DNA from: a virus
DNA: 39,920 bases
Direction: 5' to 3' (one strand)
UHGV virus genome: UHGV-1299713
The notes under the pieces are model-generated. The model was not told the DNA's origin, did no database searches, and was given only the letters and a program-made list of their open reading frames with translations. The position numbers were made by a program, and so were the translations under genes. Shown piece after piece: positions 177 to 32,462 of this stretch. Position 1 is the stretch's first letter; every line of letters begins with the position of its first letter.

Positions 177-1334
177 ATGCTCACCGTTAAGCAGATTGAA
201 GCAGCAAAGCCGAAAGAAAAACCATACCGCCTTCTCGATGGTAATGGCCTGTACCTTTATGTTCCTGTATCCGGGAAAAAGGTATGGCAGCTTCGCTACA
301 AGATTGACGGTAAGGAGAAAATCCTGACCGTAGGAAAATATCCGCTAATGACTTTGCAGGAGGCAAGGGATAAAGCATGGACCGCGAGGAAAGACATCTC
401 GGTTGGCATCGATCCGGTAAAAGCGAAAAAGGCTTCGTCTAACAACAATTCATTTAGTGCGATTTACAAGGAATGGTACGAGCACAAGAAGCAAGTCTGG
501 TCAGTAGGCTATGCAACTGAACTTGCCAAAATGTTTGATGACGACATTTTACCCATCATCGGCGGTCTTGAGATTCAGGATATTGAGCCGATGCAACTGT
601 TGGAAGTAATCCGCAGATTTGAAGATCGCGGCGCAATGGAGCGAGCCAACAAAGCACGCAGAAGATGCGGCGAGGTTTTCCGTTACGCTATTGTCACTGG
701 TAGGGCTAAATATAACCCGGCACCTGACCTTGCTGACGCCATGAAGGGATACCGCAAGAAGAACTTCCCGTTTCTTCCTGCAGACCAGATCCCTGCATTC
801 AACAAAGCACTGGCAACATTTTCAGGAAGCATCGTATCGCTCATTGCGACTAAAGTTTTGCGCTACACAGCCCTAAGAACGAAAGAGCTTCGCTCCATGC
901 TATGGAAGAACGTCGATTTTGAAAACAGGATTATCACCATCGACGCCAGTGTGATGAAGGGTCGAAAAATTCATGTGGTTCCTATGTCAGACCAGGTGAT
1001 TGAACTTCTCACTACGCTAAGCTCAATCACTAAACCAGTGTCAGAGTTTGTTTTTGCCGGGCGCAACGATAAGAAGAAGCCAATTTGCGAGAACGCTGTA
1101 CTGCTTGTGATCAAACAAATCGGCTATGAAGGTCTGGAAAGCGGTCACGGATTCAGGCATGAATTCAGCACGATTATGAACGAGCACGAATGGCCTGCTG
1201 ACGCTATTGAAGTGCAACTGGCACATGCCAACGGCGGATCTGTGCGCGGAATTTACAACCATGCTCAGTATCTCGATAAGCGCAGAGAAATGATGCAGTG
1301 GTGGGCGGACTGGCTTGATGAAAAGGTGGAGTAA
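177..1334 (+). CDS. int: Tyrosine integrase, P4-like family (ATG at 177; the ORF track starts at an upstream GTG at 141)
   Basis: N-terminus MLTVKQIEAAKPKEKPYRLLDGNGLYLYV is typical of P4-type integrase arm-binding domains; C-terminal catalytic region present; transcribed from the xis side toward an AT-rich putative att region. Confidence 0.85.
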   Translation: MLTVKQIEAAKPKEKPYRLLDGNGLYLYVPVSGKKVWQLRYKIDGKEKILTVGKYPLMTLQEARDKAWTARKDISVGIDPVKAKKASSNNNSFSAIYKEWYEHKKQVWSVGYATELAKMFDDDILPIIGGLEIQDIEPMQLLEVIRRFEDRGAMERANKARRRCGEVFRYAIVTGRAKYNPAPDLADAMKGYRKKNFPFLPADQIPAFNKALATFSGSIVSLIATKVLRYTALRTKELRSMLWKNVDFENRIITIDASVMKGRKIHVVPMSDQVIELLTTLSSITKPVSEFVFAGRNDKKKPICENAVLLVIKQIGYEGLESGHGFRHEFSTIMNEHEWPADAIEVQLAHANGGSVRGIYNHAQYLDKRREMMQWWADWLDEKVE

Positions 1335-1510
1335 TCCACCTTAACTATCGAATATCACAAAGCCTTGCAATCTAGTGCAAAACTTTGTGTAAGATCATCT
1401 TGTTGTTTTAATTAACAAATAAATTATTTTGATTTTAGCAATCAAAATAAAATGTTAACAATAATGCACAAAAAAATCACTTGCAATTTAATTGTAACAG
1501 CAAATGTTCT

Positions 1511-3406
1511 TTACAATATTCTAACTTCACCGTATACGCTCAATATTTTATCAGGAACAAGGTCGCTTCTACCTTTAATTTGAACATATGGCAAATCATC
1601 AGTATTTAATTCCAAATTTGTAGAAAAGAACACTCCTCCACCACTCTGGATTGAGCTACTAAATTCAAAGAACTCACCAGACATGAATAATCCTTTCAGT
1701 CTTACACTTCCAGACTGATGGTTTACAACTATGTTCACACTTAATGTCTCAACTGCATTATGAATTGCAGATGTCTTTAGTAACAATGTTGAATTACCAA
1801 AATCTATCCACTCAAACCCATATTCACCATCAAGACCACCTGAAAATTTACCAGCATAATTACCAGTTAATATAGAGTTGACGACATTTCCGCTAACTCC
1901 ATTTATTTTCTTCCTCTGGTCTATTCTGTGATTAACTCCAAAATAACCTTCAGGAACAATTAAATCTCTGGTACTAGAAGCAACAGAGTCATAAAATTCA
2001 ACCCTTACACCATGACCATAAGTGTTTTCCTTTGTTTTTAATATCCTCCCAATGTTATCAGCATTTTCAAACCTGTTACTTCCAGAAATAAATATTTCAC
2101 TAGCTGGCGTATCTGCATACCCAACAAAAAACATTGAGTCCTTAGAGATAAAATTCACATAGTTATTTTCAAGTAATGATGAAAATACATAACTACCAAA
2201 ATAAACACCAACATCATCGACATTTTCGATGTATGAGTTACATAATTTGAAATCATAAACAGCGGCATTAAATTGTATGCCAACAGTGCAACCTTCAACA
2301 GAAATACCATCCATTACAAGCGATGTTACAGGCCCATCAAATCTATATTGCATTTGGGCATTTGTTGCAATCAGTCTTGTGAATTCGTTTAAATTATGCG
2401 CACCGCTAAAAACAAATCTATCTCCCAAATATTCCTGCGGATATTCAAAAACAATATTATCCAATTTAAGGTAGTAGTTATTGTGTGAGTGAATACCAAA
2501 TGATGAGCAATTACAAAATATATTTTTAATCTCACACCCATGATGCCAGTCTTGAATCCTTAGACAGGCTGAACTCAACCTATTATTATCTGTGCTTGAT
2601 ATAATAGAGAAATTTGATAATGAGATATACTTACTGTAATGTGAATCATCACTAGAACCAAAGTTGCTTACAAGCATACCGTTATCATTATAATATCCAC
2701 TCTCAAAAAGAGTAATATCTGAAAGCATGTTGAATACGCAACCGCATCCATCTATAATTTTTTGCTTTGCCCTCTCAAATGTTTCATCGAAATTTTGAGG
2801 TATAATTAATGTTTTTTTTATGCCATATACCTTACCTGGAACTCCAATTATTTTTTTGTTGCTATTAAATGCCTCTTTTATTCCTGCTTGAATGTAGTCA
2901 GAGCAGTCAATATCTGATGTATTCCCATTAATGTCTGGCGGTATGAAATCATCAAAAGAAAGTGTTTCCCTTAATTTAATTAATGATGTCGTGCCTTTTG
3001 CATTGTTTTCACTCTGAATGAATCCTATATATTTTGAACCATCGTTTCCAGACAATCTTTCTTCAAGCTGATCAGGGTCATACTTCAGCACATTTGGGAA
3101 TTTGAACTGCTGCGCACCGTACGCATCATAAACAGCCATGGAATGGCCTTGCACAGTTACGAACTTGGCAATCTGTCCGTTATATACCGGATATCCGGCA
3201 GCGTTAATAATGATTGGTTGCGAAACAGGAACGTGAGAGCCGTCTTCGTTCTCCACATAAACCTGAATCTGGTTTTCAGGGTTTACCGGGTCAGTGTCAA
3301 TTTTACCGATATAAATTTTACCATTGGCTACGGCTTTAAAAGAACGAGCCATAGTGAAGAGTTGCGAAGGCATGCTTACCACAACATTTGCGGTGATATC
3401 TGACAT
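1511..3406 (-). CDS. Tailspike protein with P22 gp9-like head-binding N-terminus and a divergent receptor-binding body (start at [13 protein letters not shown] 3406, GGAG 7 nt upstream)
   Basis: First ~120 aa closely resemble the P22/HK620-type tailspike head-binding domain; the remaining ~500 aa are unrelated to the P22 sequence and the DNA is visibly AT-rich. Confidence 0.85.
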
Positions 3407-3527
3407 TTCATTGCTCCAGACGAATGATATGATGCAACCATGATGTGATTGCATACCGAAATGGTACTATTGAGTATTTATCCAGTAGGTTACGATGCCA
3501 TTCCACCCAACTGGTGAGGCATCAAGG

Positions 3528-3794
3528 ATGTACAGCAAATACGACGAGGCGCAGTTTCACTTGAGACTTCCGCATGAACTCCACGCGAAAATTAAACAGC
3601 GTGCGAAGATGAATAACAGATCGCTGAACTCAGAGATAATTGCAGCGATTGAAGAATCATTGGCTAAACAAAGCTCTGCATCCGTTTACATTGACGATGC
3701 AGAGCGTATGGCAGAGCAACAATCTGATATGGTTAAGAAAATTGTTTTTGAAACGCTTAAGACCATGTATAGCAATAATAAAAAGGAAACATAG
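3528..3794 (+). CDS. mnt: Mnt-like ribbon-helix-helix repressor
   Basis: Resembles P22 Mnt as recalled (RMP-EV--KLK-RA--NGRSMNSE, C-terminal DAERLAEQQSDMVKKIVFETLK); ATG 3528 with upstream GAGG; no arc or ant genes nearby. Confidence 0.7.
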   Translation: MYSKYDEAQFHLRLPHELHAKIKQRAKMNNRSLNSEIIAAIEESLAKQSSASVYIDDAERMAEQQSDMVKKIVFETLKTMYSNNKKET

Positions 3795-3864
3795 AAATCT
3801 AGTTTCCGGCTAAAATGGCATTGCCTTCATGATATCCTGTGAAAAACTAAGGAGAGTTAACCAT

Positions 3865-4350
3865 ATGAAAAAATCACTGTTAATTATCCCTCTTCTGCTG
3901 GTTGGATGCGCAAAAGTAAGTGACTATCAAGCAAGTTGCGAGCAACGCTATCAAAAGCTTAGCGATATGGCTAATTGCCTTGATGCCAGCGTGAAGAACG
4001 ACTCACGCATGGCATCAGCACCAACACCTAAGCTGTATGTCCTTGCTGCAAAGATGCTCGGGCAAGGCGTCGATGAAGGCAAGATAAGTGACGCACAGGC
4101 AAGACTTGAGCTTCAGAATCTTTATGTTCAATTACAAAGCCAAGAACAAGCCCAACAAATAGCACAAAGCCAAGCATTCCAGCAGGCTTTATTGAATTAT
4201 CAGGCTGTAAACACAATGCAAGCGATCGAGCAAAAAGCGCGCCAGCCTGTTATAACTCAACCTTACCCAACACGCGTTGACACATATACAAACTGCAATT
4301 CAGGATTTGGAAACACGGTAACATGCAACAGTAGCAGTAGCATCAGATAA
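3865..4350 (+). CDS. Predicted lipoprotein, function unknown (candidate superinfection exclusion or moron protein)
   Basis: Signal peptide with lipobox MKKSLLIIPLLLVGC; AAGGAGAG RBS 8 nt upstream of ATG 3865; Gln-rich helical middle; Cys/Ser-rich tail. Confidence 0.7.
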   Translation: MKKSLLIIPLLLVGCAKVSDYQASCEQRYQKLSDMANCLDASVKNDSRMASAPTPKLYVLAAKMLGQGVDEGKISDAQARLELQNLYVQLQSQEQAQQIAQSQAFQQALLNYQAVNTMQAIEQKARQPVITQPYPTRVDTYTNCNSGFGNTVTCNSSSSIR

Positions 4351-4440: not shown

Positions 4441-6438
4441 CTATTCTGACAACGAATCAGACTTCGCACCCTGCGTCAGTGCATTAATCGCTTTTTGCGC
4501 TTGCTGCATGGCTTTCTCAAACGCTGTCGATCCGCGTGGGGTGTTTGCCATTCGGAGCATTGCATTTCTGAATGGCTCGCTCTCATAGGCGCGAGTAAGA
4601 AGTCCGTAGCTTACTGCTGCGCCAGTTGTCGCCGGGTTCATTGCCGTCCCATACCCAATAATGAACGGGATGGTTTGCTGCCCTGTTGGTGTTGTTACTG
4701 CTGCTTTTGCAGCCTGCTGCGTGGATTGCAGGTAGTTTTTCAATCCTTTCAGATAAGCGGCTTCCTGACCTTTAAATGTGATGCCAGTCTGGTTTTGCAG
4801 GATATTAAGCTGCCGAAGGAACTGGTCAGGGGATCCGCCAGATTTCTCCATCGCCTTTCCAATGATGCCATTGCGCATTTGCGCCCTGCCAACACGACCA
4901 ACTGAGTTATACAGAGTCTTAATTTCCGATTTGTTCTTGCTGAATAGCATGTTGTTGACAACTTCTGGCGTCAGATCGCCTTTCATGAGAACATTCTTCA
5001 GCCTGGTATTCTTGAGTTTCGCTGCTTCGTCAGCATAGACGGCATTGGCCTGCTGATATTTACGGAGAGTATCGTTGCCAAGATTCTGACCAATGGCACC
5101 ATTGATATCGTCGGTCATTGCCTTGTAAACGCGCTGAATGGCAGCATCGGAACGGTTTGGTAACACTGGTCGCTCACCCTTCACGTCCATTCTGAACTGG
5201 CTGCGCAGGTCGCTTAATTGCTTCAAATCCAGATTTACAGGACCATCAGGACCAGCATTGCGAACAAGCTCATCACGATAGGACTGAAGTTTTGAAATAG
5301 TCTCGTTATCAGCGACCTTACCAAGCTTCTGCAGGTTAGATATTTCTGTATCAATCTGCTGAATTGCTCGCGCAGGCTGAATGTTTACTCCAGCCATAGC
5401 ATGCTGAACCTGCTCCAGTCGATTACCGGCGGCACGACGAATTCCTGATGTTTTCGCTTTAAGGCTGTCAATAACAACCGCTGGATCATACTCACCGAAT
5501 TTATCAGCAAATCTCTGAACCAACTGGCTTCTCGCTTCCTGTTGCGTTGCTCTCATTCCGCTTGTGCCAGCCAGAGGGATATTTTCTGCTATAGTCTGCG
5601 CCATTTTTCCGACGCGGGAAGTTGGTTGTAACAGGTCTGTGGTGTGCAGAGGAGTTCCTTCACGCTCTGCAAATCTGATAGCCTGCTGCGCTTCTGGCGC
5701 GATAGCACCACGAACGCCACGATAAGCAGCACCTAATCCACGTCCAGCAGCGTTAATAGCACCGCCAGCAAGTACACCAACGCCTAAATCGGTGGCGAGT
5801 GCTTCCGCATCATCTTTCGCACTATTTGCAGCAAGTGATCCAACTGCGTTTTCTGCTAGAAGGCGAGTCGCCCCCTGAGCAATTCGACCAGCAAGTGTTG
5901 GTGCCTGTACTGCCGCTCTCTCAACACCAGCAGGAGTGAGGTAAGGCAATGCTTCAGCAAATACCCTTCCCTCTGTCGTTTGTGGAGTCAGCGCGCCTTG
6001 CTGAAGGCCAAAGTCCTGCTCTAATCCCTGCGTTGTTACTCGTGGTGCTGGTTGATATGTGCCATCGCCAATACCGAGTTTACCTCCGGCCCATGCCGCT
6101 GCGCTTGTTACAGCATCGGCAACTGATGCAGGTATGTTTGCCACGTTCACGCCAGCCTGCACCAGTCCGCGACCAGTCTCTTTTACTGCTTCGCCAAGAT
6201 CAGACATAAATCTACTTTGCTGTGGTTGTTGCTGTGCTACTGGTTGCTGTGTCTCCACTTGCTGCACAGATGGCAATGGATAGGCAGCATAGAAAGCTTG
6301 CTTAGCCTGCTCTGCATTTTCTCCGGCTTGCGGGGCCACGACTTCATTGAAGTATTGCTCCTGAGCCTGCGCTTTTTGTTCTGGTGCTAACGCCTGATAC
6401 TGTGGAGAGGCGATAACATCTTTCCATGCTTTAGCCAT
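4441..6438 (-). CDS. Ejection (DNA transfer) protein, P22 gp16 homolog
   Basis: Position last in the P22-order ejection protein set 7-20-16; 665 aa; Ala/Gln-rich. Confidence 0.8.
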   Translation of the reverse strand: MAKAWKDVIASPQYQALAPEQKAQAQEQYFNEVVAPQAGENAEQAKQAFYAAYPLPSVQQVETQQPVAQQQPQQSRFMSDLGEAVKETGRGLVQAGVNVANIPASVADAVTSAAAWAGGKLGIGDGTYQPAPRVTTQGLEQDFGLQQGALTPQTTEGRVFAEALPYLTPAGVERAAVQAPTLAGRIAQGATRLLAENAVGSLAANSAKDDAEALATDLGVGVLAGGAINAAGRGLGAAYRGVRGAIAPEAQQAIRFAEREGTPLHTTDLLQPTSRVGKMAQTIAENIPLAGTSGMRATQQEARSQLVQRFADKFGEYDPAVVIDSLKAKTSGIRRAAGNRLEQVQHAMAGVNIQPARAIQQIDTEISNLQKLGKVADNETISKLQSYRDELVRNAGPDGPVNLDLKQLSDLRSQFRMDVKGERPVLPNRSDAAIQRVYKAMTDDINGAIGQNLGNDTLRKYQQANAVYADEAAKLKNTRLKNVLMKGDLTPEVVNNMLFSKNKSEIKTLYNSVGRVGRAQMRNGIIGKAMEKSGGSPDQFLRQLNILQNQTGITFKGQEAAYLKGLKNYLQSTQQAAKAAVTTPTGQQTIPFIIGYGTAMNPATTGAAVSYGLLTRAYESEPFRNAMLRMANTPRGSTAFEKAMQQAQKAINALTQGAKSDSLSE

Positions 6439-20055: not shown

Positions 20056-20574
20056 TCACTTTGGCAGTCCGGGGATCGATATTTGCGCCTGCTGCTCAAG
20101 CCTTTCGATTCTTGCTATGAGTTGCGGTTTTTTGATCCTGCCCCAGCGGTTCAGCAAGCGTCCTGACATACTGGCAACATCCTTTTCCTTCATGAACTCC
20201 AGCATTAACTCGTTGTGCTCTCTTTGGTATGAGTGAGCCATCTCCATCAGCCTGTCACGCATCCAATTAAATGCTTTGATAAACGCCTCTTTGATGGCGG
20301 CAGCTTTTTTGCCGGTAAACGACATGATGATGTACATCGCGCCGTCTTTGGAAATTTCATATTCAACATACTGATTACCCTTGTGTTCATAGGTAACCCG
20401 CGAAAAGTTGCTGGTTAGAAATTCATCCGAACAGTCTAGCTTTTCGATTTTCTGAATGATGTGGTGATGCTGCTTGTCGAAGTAAGCTGCTACCTTGCGG
20501 GAGGTTGTGATCACGCGATCACCAGAAACAACCACCATGTCCCGGAAATCGAGATTAGCCAATTGATGATTCAT
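20056..20574 (-). CDS. rha: Rha-family phage regulatory protein (start at MNHQLANLDF, not the 253-aa ORF)
   Basis: Placement after the lysis genes as in P22; sequence reads as Rha-family (MNHQLANLDFRDMVVVSGDRVITTSRKVAAYFDKQHHHIIQKIEKL). Confidence 0.7.
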   Translation of the reverse strand: MNHQLANLDFRDMVVVSGDRVITTSRKVAAYFDKQHHHIIQKIEKLDCSDEFLTSNFSRVTYEHKGNQYVEYEISKDGAMYIIMSFTGKKAAAIKEAFIKAFNWMRDRLMEMAHSYQREHNELMLEFMKEKDVASMSGRLLNRWGRIKKPQLIARIERLEQQAQISIPGLPK

Positions 20575-20716
20575 AGCGTCTTTACCTTTTAGAAAGTGAG
20601 CCTGTCTCACAGAAAAGCCGCCCGAGAGAGGTCGCCACCTATAACGGCATTTCTCAGGCTCGCTTACTGAAAGGCTCTCGTTAATATGCGCGTGAGATGC
20701 GCTGTGAAATTCAGAT

Positions 20717-20741
20717 ATAAAAAGCCCCGCGAATGCGAGGC
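20717..20741 (-). terminator. Candidate terminator after the lysis cassette
   Basis: Minus-strand GCCUCGC-AUUC-GCGGGGC hairpin followed by UUUUUAUAU. Confidence 0.4.
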
Positions 20742-20916
20742 TAAATCCTGGTATTTGTAATGAACTGGCTCTTATCTCAACGCAGCCCCTTACCGCGCGC
20801 CAGATGCTCAATATCAAGCATCAGCAATGAGATGTTTAATCTGGATTCACTCCAGAAGTGATCACCACCCTGTCTACAGAGCCAGATGTGAAGGATGATG
20901 AGTAAAATTATCGCTA

Positions 20917-30809: not shown

Positions 30810-30928
30810 AAACAGATACCAAACGAGATGGGTTTGGCGGTGATGTGAATTGCAGCTGCAACGACAGCAACCAGAAGATCAGCATCTGGCGCATCACCAC
30901 CAAAGCCATTTCACATGAGGAAAACATC

Positions 30929-31270
30929 ATGACGGTAATCGTGTACGGGAAATCAACATTCGCAGGAAATGCCAAAACTCGCCGTCATGAGCGGCGCAGA
31001 AAACTGGCTATCGAGCGTGATGCTATATGCAACATCATTGATTCTATCTTCGGCACAGACAGTGAGGAACCTGTTCAGGAAGCCCCAAGAAAGCGTTTAA
31101 GCATTTCTGAAAAAGCAATATCACTCGGAAGCCTTCGCTGCAAGAAGGCAGATGAAGTCGAGCGTAAACAGAACCGTATTTACTACCGCAAGCCACGCAG
31201 TGAAATGGGTGTGACATGCTCAGGCCGCCAGAAGCAACGCGGAAAATCAATTCCAGCTTATTACGATTGA
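30929..31270 (+). CDS. N-like transcription antiterminator (P22 gp24-type)
   Basis: Starts MTVIVYGKSTFAGNAKTRRHERRRKLAIERD, an arginine-rich motif as in N proteins; GAGG 8 nt upstream. Confidence 0.75.
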   Translation: MTVIVYGKSTFAGNAKTRRHERRRKLAIERDAICNIIDSIFGTDSEEPVQEAPRKRLSISEKAISLGSLRCKKADEVERKQNRIYYRKPRSEMGVTCSGRQKQRGKSIPAYYD

Positions 31271-31278
31271 GGTGAGCC

Positions 31279-31416
31279 ATGCTCAAGAAAGTCAAACGCC
31301 GACTTTACAAAGAAGGTAGATATTCATGCCAATTGCCAAAATGCGACACAGCAAAATGGAGTGTCGACGATTGGTGTAACTGGATAGATAGATACGGAAC
31401 TTGGTGGGATAAATAA
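31279..31416 (+). CDS. Small hypothetical protein (45 aa, Trp/Cys-containing)
   Basis: ATG 9 nt after the N stop with GAGGTGAG upstream; read by eye. Confidence 0.3.
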   Translation: MLKKVKRRLYKEGRYSCQLPKCDTAKWSVDDWCNWIDRYGTWWDK

Positions 31417-31471
31417 CAGGTAACTTAAGCGGATTTATTTTCGCAGCAAACCACTGTATGAGGGGTGAGAT

Positions 31472-31603
31472 ATGAGCTACCAAATTCAATACAGAAGTTG
31501 CGGTAGATGGGTTTGCGGAAACTCTTTCAAAACAAAAGAACAGGCTGAGCAATACGCAAAACAAACAGGTCAGGATTATCAAATTGTAAAGACAAGGAGA
31601 TAA
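31472..31603 (+). CDS. Small Cys-containing protein (43 aa) whose stop overlaps the RBS of the next gene
   Basis: MSYQIQYRSCGRWVCGNSF...; stop TAA at 31601..31603 directly precedes ATG 31605. Confidence 0.35.
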   Translation: MSYQIQYRSCGRWVCGNSFKTKEQAEQYAKQTGQDYQIVKTRR

Positions 31604-31604
31604 C

Positions 31605-32462
31605 ATGCCAGGATTTACAAGTAAATTCATACCAAGAAGAGAATTCAAGCATAATCCAGAAAGACTAAATGTTATTTCTTCCGGTGGTGGAACTCAAAGT
31701 AACGCAATAATCTGCTTAGTACATGCTGGCGTTCTTCCAAAGCCTGACATTATCGTTATGTCAGATACAGAACGTGAGGCAAGTAATGTATTTGAATATC
31801 AGAAAAAATATATAGCTCCTATTTGTGAAGATATGGGTGTTGATTACCTGATTGTTCCTAAAAGTAGATTTGCTACCTACGACATTGATGGGCCTGATCC
31901 AGACGTTCCTCTACCTGGATATTTCACAGAATACGAGGGAAGGGATTCAAAAGGAATGTGCGCTGGAAAGCAACCAGCATTTTGTTCTATAAAGTGGAAA
32001 ACTGAAGTTATTCAGAGATTTTTAAATGAAAGATATGGAGAGAAGTATCTTACAGCAAGAGGAGTGGATAGTTGGATGGGGATAAGCATTGAAGAGGCTA
32101 AACGAAGAGCGAAATACCCAACTGGCAAGTGGCAGAGGCGCTATCCACTTATTGAAATGCTAATGACTAAACAGATGGCAATTCAATGTGTCGAGGATTA
32201 TGGTCTTCCTACACCACCTGCCTCGCTTTGCTGGATGTGCCCTAACAGAGATGATGATCTGTGGCTTTATATGAAAAATAACGTCCCATCTGATTTTGAA
32301 AGAGCATGTCAGCATGAAAAAGAGATACAAATGAAGTGGCCTCATTTGTGGCTTACTAAATATGGTGTTCCACTATCTGAGGCACCACTAACACCTAGTG
32401 GTGGTAAAAATGCACAAATGGATCTTATACAATTCTGCGATTCTGGACTGTGCTTCGCTTAA
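31605..32462 (+). CDS. PAPS-reductase-like / PP-loop ATP pyrophosphatase family protein
   Basis: PP-loop-like SSGGGTQSNAI near the N-terminus and C-terminal Cys motifs (CAGKQPAFC, CWMCPN); AAGGAGA RBS; AT-rich DNA. Confidence 0.7.
   Translation: MPGFTSKFIPRREFKHNPERLNVISSGGGTQSNAIICLVHAGVLPKPDIIVMSDTEREASNVFEYQKKYIAPICEDMGVDYLIVPKSRFATYDIDGPDPDVPLPGYFTEYEGRDSKGMCAGKQPAFCSIKWKTEVIQRFLNERYGEKYLTARGVDSWMGISIEEAKRRAKYPTGKWQRRYPLIEMLMTKQMAIQCVEDYGLPTPPASLCWMCPNRDDDLWLYMKNNVPSDFERACQHEKEIQMKWPHLWLTKYGVPLSEAPLTPSGGKNAQMDLIQFCDSGLCFA

Follow-up and report, generated by a model that had tools for sequence, protein, structure and literature searches.

A mosaic P22-type tailspike with an AT-rich body of predicted β-helical fold

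Locus and gene

The window analysed here is the whole of the UHGV virus genome UHGV-1299713 (39,920 nt), a complete P22-like genome in prophage gene order. Its backbone is ~96% identical to those of phages IME10 and APC_JM3.2 and ~82% identical to that of P22. The complete tailspike gene lies on the minus strand at 1511..3406, encodes a protein of 631 residues and ends in a stop codon at 1511–1513. In the list of open reading frames it was called as 1511..3454 on the minus strand, beginning at an upstream in-frame ATG at 3454 that is not used by homologues. The start was instead placed at the ATG at 3406–3404, because homologues begin with MSDITAN, a Shine–Dalgarno sequence read from the DNA (GGAG, 3414..3417, minus strand) lies 7 nt upstream and the exact 631-residue product is already catalogued in public assemblies.

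The tailspike gene follows int (integrase; 141–1334). On its other side it is adjoined by an Arc/Mnt-like gene (3495–3794, plus strand, 99 residues), a small lipoprotein ORF (3829–4350, plus strand, 173 residues) and the gene for a gp16-type DNA transfer protein (4441–6438; phrog_770). The gp16 homologue is followed by the remaining virion genes and then by the lysis, replication and immunity genes. The tailspike gene is the last of the virion module and is located between the ejection-protein/immI region and int, the position of a P22-like tailspike gene. E. coli prophages integrated at argW also encode the identical protein. In one such assembly (L015), the prophage abuts the gene for tRNA-Arg(CCT) (argW; 13392–13466 in L015) and lies beside yfdC, mlaA, fadL and fadIJ, a neighbourhood that is the E. 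coli argW attachment site. No tRNA gene was found in the window itself, of which positions 1–140 form the start; the window therefore appears to begin inside the attachment region.

Between the tailspike gene and int (1335–1510) there is no O-antigen-modifying gene (gtr, oac or polymerase). The comparators carry other bodies in the same slot, sometimes together with an O-antigen acyltransferase or polymerase-like gene; Sf6, Sf101, HK620 and the E. coli 22KM0354 prophage have an O-antigen-modifying gene between tailspike and int, whereas the window does not. A hairpin read by eye at 1321..1340 (minus strand), GGTGGA-TTAC-TCCACC with TTTT behind it, overlaps the int stop codon (1332–1334) and is probably a terminator common to the tailspike and int transcripts. 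A consensus scan missed this hairpin and found no convincing terminator 3′ of the tailspike gene, and an Rfam scan of the window gave no matches.

Several other genes of the window were recorded. The 99-residue product of 3495–3794 joins an Arc-like ribbon–helix–helix domain (PF03869) to an Mnt C-terminal motif (PF11423); its homologues are named 'partition protein ATPase' in PHROGs and in the Sf101 record, a label that looks like a propagated misannotation. The ORF at 3829–4350, between the Arc/Mnt-like gene and gp16, carries a lipoprotein-type signal (MKKSLLIIPLLLVGC) and matches phrog_6067 (unknown function; E = 8.5e-110), with no Pfam or PADLOC match; a role as a moron or in superinfection exclusion is conceivable. 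At 20056–20817 (minus strand), with the lysis genes on one side and the terminase region on the other, lies the gene for a regulatory protein of the Rha family (PF09669 with an ORF11CD3 domain). The ORF at 31605–32459 (plus strand, 285 residues), situated immediately downstream of the gene for the N antiterminator (30845–31270), has a match to phrog_424 'PAPS reductase' (E = 6e-35) and a weak one to PADLOC SspD (E = 3e-7). It lies in a low-GC patch (~31250–31700) that is, besides the tailspike locus, the only stretch of the window with a GC content below 0.40, and could represent a moron or a gene of defence or counter-defence.

Head-binding domain and cassette boundaries

Residues 1–113 of the tailspike (3068..3406, minus strand) form a P22-type head-binding (tail-attachment) domain. 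Pfam entry PF09008 (Head_binding) is matched over profile positions 1–113 of 113 with E = 3.7e-66, as expected of a P22-like tailspike, and the segment is 91% identical to Sf6 gp14 over residues 1–113 and 74% identical to P22 gp9 over 114 residues. When PDB sequences were searched using phmmer, only residues 1–118 were matched, by Sf6 gp14 (PDB entry 7sg7; E = 1e-63) and by P22 gp9 (PDB entries 2xc1, 8tvr and 1lkt; E ~1e-44 to 1e-49). The DNA encoding this domain is 93–97% identical in nucleotides to that of IME10 and of many E. coli prophages. The original prediction, made from the DNA letters, that the first ~120 residues are a head-binding domain of the P22 type was borne out by the full-length PF09008 match and by the identities to Sf6 and P22.

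The window is 94–97% identical to the E. coli 22KM0354 prophage and to IME10 across the head-binding domain and the region upstream of it, after which the identity stops abruptly. In blastn alignments the upstream homology ends at 3061 (22KM0354) and 3050 (IME10), which places a 5′ recombination breakpoint at 3050..3061 (minus strand), within codons ~116–119 and just after KYDPDQLE. Megablast matches in 28 phage records and in 1,109 of the 5,426 complete E. coli genomes cover only the first 430–450 nt, and all of them end within ~20 nt of this breakpoint. Homology resumes downstream of the stop codon, at 1390 in 22KM0354 and 1344 in IME10 (blastn); the untranslated 3′ part of the imported cassette, at 1391..1510 (minus strand), is AT-rich (GC 0.21). 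Because DNA homology stops at 3050–3061 and resumes at 1344–1390, the replaced cassette is taken to be ~1.7 kb in length and to run from codon ~116 to the stop codon together with ~120–170 nt of 3′ untranslated DNA.

Another E. coli prophage, L001, has this body as well, with eight differences in 1,584 nt (99.5% nucleotide identity), while its head-binding segment differs from that of the window at 25 of 312 nt (8%). Near-identical bodies thus stand on head-binding alleles that diverge by 8%, which indicates recent shuffling within E. coli phages.

Body family and its relatives

By its sequence relationships the body is a member of a small, rare and uncharacterised family of phage receptor-binding modules. 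It has no match in Pfam and, by phmmer, no match to a PDB sequence beyond residue 118. Neither the phage collection nor the 5,426 complete E. coli genomes, the latter searched at blastn sensitivity, gave a match past the head-binding part. Among 5.8 billion clustered proteins it falls into a single 90%-identity cluster of 75 sequences, and every named member listed in that cluster is a 'phage head-binding domain-containing protein' from an E. coli draft genome; the next relative is 52% identical. HMMER, run exhaustively over 1.84 billion representatives, returned only 80 clusters at E ≤ 1e-3, of which 42 were at E ≤ 1e-30. A near-identical donor was found in no database searched, the best relative outside E. 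coli being 52–53% identical. Among isolated phages, the closest of the matches listed by tblastn were unannotated Vibrio phage tail proteins of ~25% identity; a further match was to one Proteus phage record. A scan of GTDB species representatives with a pattern derived from an eight-sequence alignment gave three confirmed cases (Xenorhabdus ehlersii, a Lentisphaeria MAG and Paenibacillus).

Relatives of the body occupy tail-fibre or tailspike positions in other phages, and in the relatives the helix and the C-terminal domain are conserved as one unit up to the terminal GEIR(L/I)(I/L). The anchors to which the unit is attached are varied and include Head_binding (Xenorhabdus), a T7 tail-fibre N-terminus, an endosialidase N-terminal extension, a prophage tail-fibre N-terminus and Mtd_N; others are those of a baseplate-J-adjacent myovirus fibre and of one of four tailspikes on an Agtrevirus-like Ackermannviridae contig. 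The Xenorhabdus ehlersii prophage 'head binding protein' (WP_244208742/A0A2D0IX98; P0004), likewise uncharacterised, also combines Head_binding with this body family and is 48% identical across the whole body, including the C-terminal GEIR motif, but it differs in its host genus and in having a body GC (0.406) that equals that of its flanks (0.409). The Agtrevirus-like tailspike (P0003) and the myovirus baseplate fibre (P0002) belong to the same body family, with 49–53% identity over the full length. Like the window tailspike they hold receptor-binding positions, P0003 in the four-tailspike cluster beside VriC and P0002 just downstream of Baseplate_J; unlike it, they have unrelated N-terminal anchors and a body GC of 0.42–0.44, and they are known from metagenome assemblies only. 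In the Paenibacillus sp. relative (L018, 3001–4431; 37% identical) the body has a GC content of 0.321 and the flanks 0.457. This Gram-positive case suggests that low GC recurs within the module family.

Base composition and module exchange

The DNA of the body (1511–3054) has a GC content of 0.334 (0.40, 0.35 and 0.25 at the three codon positions), compared with 0.44–0.45 in the head-binding part and 0.482 in the rest of the window; in the 3′ untranslated tail (1391–1510) it is 0.208. The background was calculated from 1,399 windows of body length taken elsewhere in the window (mean 0.484, s.d. 0.028, minimum 0.392), relative to which the body has z = −5.4. The original prediction had described the body DNA as conspicuously AT-rich and had proposed a calculation of GC along the gene; the composition is indeed non-uniform, with a step at ~3000–3100 as stated there. 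The GC3 of the body is 0.25 as against 0.37–0.44 in three measured relatives of 48–53% amino-acid identity, so that the low GC cannot be put down to the amino-acid sequence. Among nine E. coli/Shigella P22-like tailspikes, body GC ranges from 0.334 (the window, the lowest) to 0.457, with the eight others at 0.383–0.457. AT-rich bodies are common in E. coli P22-like tailspikes, and AT-richness alone therefore does not date the exchange.

The composition could also be read as a long-standing trait of receptor-binding modules, in which case the gene would be a long-term resident of E. coli P22-like phages. Such a history, which we regard as rather unlikely, would fit the other bodies that fall below backbone GC (0.383 in 22KM0354, 0.408 in Gally and 0.412 in IME10), the similar offset between body and flanks in the Paenibacillus relative and the failure to find a donor closer than the relatives of 52–53% identity outside E. 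coli. Yet the body has the most extreme GC of the nine compared, at third codon positions as well as in the untranslated tail (0.25 and 0.21, respectively), and a search as sensitive as blastn found no copy of it in the 5,426 complete E. coli genomes, while the near-identical copies on 8%-divergent head-binding alleles point to recent spread within E. coli phages. Module exchange, as had been proposed from the DNA of the window, is supported by the sharp breakpoints, the allele mismatch with the second prophage, the varied anchors of the relatives and GC3.

Predicted fold of the body

The body was modelled as a monomer with AlphaFold2 from a 53-sequence alignment, with pLDDT values of 89–98 for residues ~150–631. 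The head-binding part is absent from this alignment and was consequently poorly modelled. The model has many short strands with a period of ~23 residues followed by a strand-rich C-terminal domain. A neck or linker (residues ~120–149; 2960..3049, minus strand) is of low model confidence (pLDDT <70 up to residue ~150) and carries a motif, L..L.s.dG...(I/V)G, that is common to the relatives and to other tailspikes. It leads into a predicted right-handed parallel β-helix (residues ~150–470; 1997..2959, minus strand), which contains the candidate catalytic residues E371, E394 and D286-W287-H288. The C-terminal β-strand domain (residues ~471–631; 1514..1996, minus strand) has pLDDT values that are mostly above 90 and ends in the family-wide motif GE(I/V)R(I/L)(I/L). 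The predicted structure is that of a right-handed three-sheet β-helix succeeded by a C-terminal β domain.

Structural comparison with Foldseek placed the Sf6, P22 and HK620 tailspikes at the top ranks, with structural identities of 9–14%. The family profile matches the 'DFGA.GDG.TDD..AIQ' cap motif of Sf6 TSP and GH55. PF12708 (Pect-lyase_RHGA_epim) is reached by 24 of the 53 relatives (best E = 8.8e-14), but not by the query itself, even with E values of up to 1 allowed; the query is thus assigned to the superfamily by its fold and by transitive homology. Members of this pectate-lyase-like superfamily (PF12708; PfbA, AlgE4, GH110 and GH28) are at most 17% identical to the body, in which the cap motif is degenerate and below the Pfam threshold, and no known catalytic signature was recognised. 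The model predicts with high confidence that the body has a right-handed β-helix depolymerase fold. It is of the same fold class as other tailspikes, yet forms a separate sequence family.

Sf6 gp14, HK620 gp9 and P22 gp9 (PDB entries 7sg7/2vbk, 2vji and 2xc1, respectively) resemble the window tailspike in the N-terminal head-binding domain, in the hinge (KYDPDQ), in being encoded beside int and in a design of anchor, neck, right-handed β-helix and C-terminal β domain. After residue ~118, however, the window body has no detectable sequence similarity to them except for a generic helix-cap motif shared with Sf6. The endorhamnosidase body of P22 gp9 (residues ~125–666) was rejected as a homologue, as the phmmer alignment to 2xc1/8tvr ends at residue 115. 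The original claim that the body is unrelated to P22 gp9 thus stands for the sequence and fails for the fold class: remote homology and structure prediction from residue ~120 onwards, the check proposed with it, gave a β-helix with Sf6, P22 and HK620 ranked first.

Conserved residues and proposed function

Eight residues (N338, L339, E371, Y392, E394, Y517, T545 and R629) are invariant across the 53 sequences, and D286-W287-H288, R330, N349, Y354 and Y416 are conserved in at least 80–90% of them (~90% for D286-W287-H288). The glutamates E371 (in SxEG) and E394 (in YxEN), present in 53 of 53 sequences, are 23 residues apart, which corresponds to one helix rung. In the strand pattern of the model they take equivalent positions on consecutive rungs, on the strand preceding one sheet; D286/H288, N309, N338 and D357 are placed along this sheet from rung to rung. 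Judged from strand periodicity rather than from coordinates, the conserved polar residues would line both edges of a groove. The active sites of β-helices are usually located in such a groove. Catalytic residues could not be mapped by homology, as hhalign aligned the family profile with the Sf6 and HK620 tailspikes only in the head-binding and cap regions, and sequence searches of the body returned no characterised relative with a substrate or a demonstrated activity.

The head-binding domain (residues 1–113) docks the spike, presumably a homotrimer of which a P22-like virion carries six, onto the tail hub, and beyond the KYDPDQ hinge the ~1.7-kb cassette has taken the place of the earlier body of the backbone. 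P22-like tailspikes cleave or deacetylate the surface polysaccharide of the host, and the invariance of E371 and E394 is consistent with catalysis. In the mechanism that we propose, on the model of P22, Sf6 and HK620, the helix would bind a repeating surface polysaccharide, either O-antigen or capsule. The polysaccharide would be cleaved in the groove lined by the conserved polar residues, with E371 and E394 as the likeliest carboxylate pair, and cleavage would open a path for the virion to the outer membrane. The domain architecture, the breakpoints, the composition, the fold class, the rarity and the modular distribution are results of the analysis, whereas the trimeric state, an enzymatic activity, the identity of the catalytic residues and control of host range by the body are inferences. 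That the body is specifically a hydrolase acting through E371 and E394 we hold to be about an even proposition.

Of the other functions considered, action as a polysaccharide lyase or epimerase-like enzyme on a uronic-acid-containing capsule or O-antigen is unlikely: glycoside hydrolases (GH110, GH28, GH87 and HK620 TSP) score equally well, no Ca-binding or Arg/Lys Brønsted-base signature was identified, and both invariant residues are carboxylates, as expected of a hydrolase. The same two glutamates, unchanged across 53 sequences that diverge down to 20–25% identity, speak together with the conserved D-W-H and several Tyr, Asn and Arg residues against an adhesin-like β-helix that would bind and have no enzymatic activity. 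All characterised P22-like tailspikes of such architecture (P22, Sf6, HK620 and CUS-3) are, to our knowledge, enzymes, and a binding-only body is very unlikely. A third possibility comes from the name of a PHROG family, since the body matches phrog_8280, 'tail spike protein with colonic acid degradation activity', with E = 6.3e-83. It is highly improbable that the body is a colanic-acid depolymerase, and the name was rejected as a function: it could not be traced to an experiment, the phrase was found in no paper by full-text search and full-length homology to the colanidase Phi92 gp150 is absent. The latter, a structurally characterised enzyme (PDB entry 6e0v), aligns with the family profile in no more than the generic cap motif (E = 2e-5, positions 73–124) and was not found by tblastn, which gave no match to any coliphage. 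Relatives are found in Vibrio phages, Xenorhabdus, Paenibacillus and a Lentisphaeria MAG, and colanic acid production is not known from any of these.

For the gene as a whole, we are fairly confident that it encodes the functional tailspike of a P22-like (Lederbergvirus-type) E. coli prophage at argW, receptor-binding and, by prediction, receptor-destroying, with the architecture and module exchange described above. The surface sugar of E. coli to which the phage responds is probably determined by the body, and the distinct glycan specificity suggested in the original prediction is a reasonable inference. A further reading, possible but doubtful, is that the body founds an unclassified depolymerase family outside the current GH/PL classes, targets a rare O-antigen or capsule and has recently entered coliphages from an AT-rich pool. 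Such a family would be marked by the E...E pair on adjacent rungs, the QDWH motif and the C-terminal GEIR(L/I)(I/L) domain, and if this reading is true, the target of the E. coli allele would be an O-antigen or capsule that no known phage enzyme attacks.

Significance

In P22-like phages, the tailspike body determines the O-antigen or capsule that is open to attack; such bodies are also employed in serotyping, in depolymerase therapy and in the engineering of host range. An anchor with an exchangeable body, recombined where the ~120-residue head-binding domain ends, is an established pattern in Lederbergvirus tailspikes (P22, Sf6, HK620 and CUS-3). The design of an anchor with a swapped body has been described in Lederbergvirus prophages and has served to connect their receptor-binding proteins systematically with the O-serogroups of the E. 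coli hosts (Pas et al., 2023; PMC10408124). The mosaic tailspike of the window is one more case of well-documented Lederbergvirus mosaic evolution and introduces no new principle. What is new is the particular body, which comes from a rare and uncharacterised family, is unusually AT-rich and is absent from the isolated coliphages and the complete E. coli genomes searched. It is a clean, portable cassette with defined junctions, and its characterisation would add a specificity and possibly a new depolymerase family.
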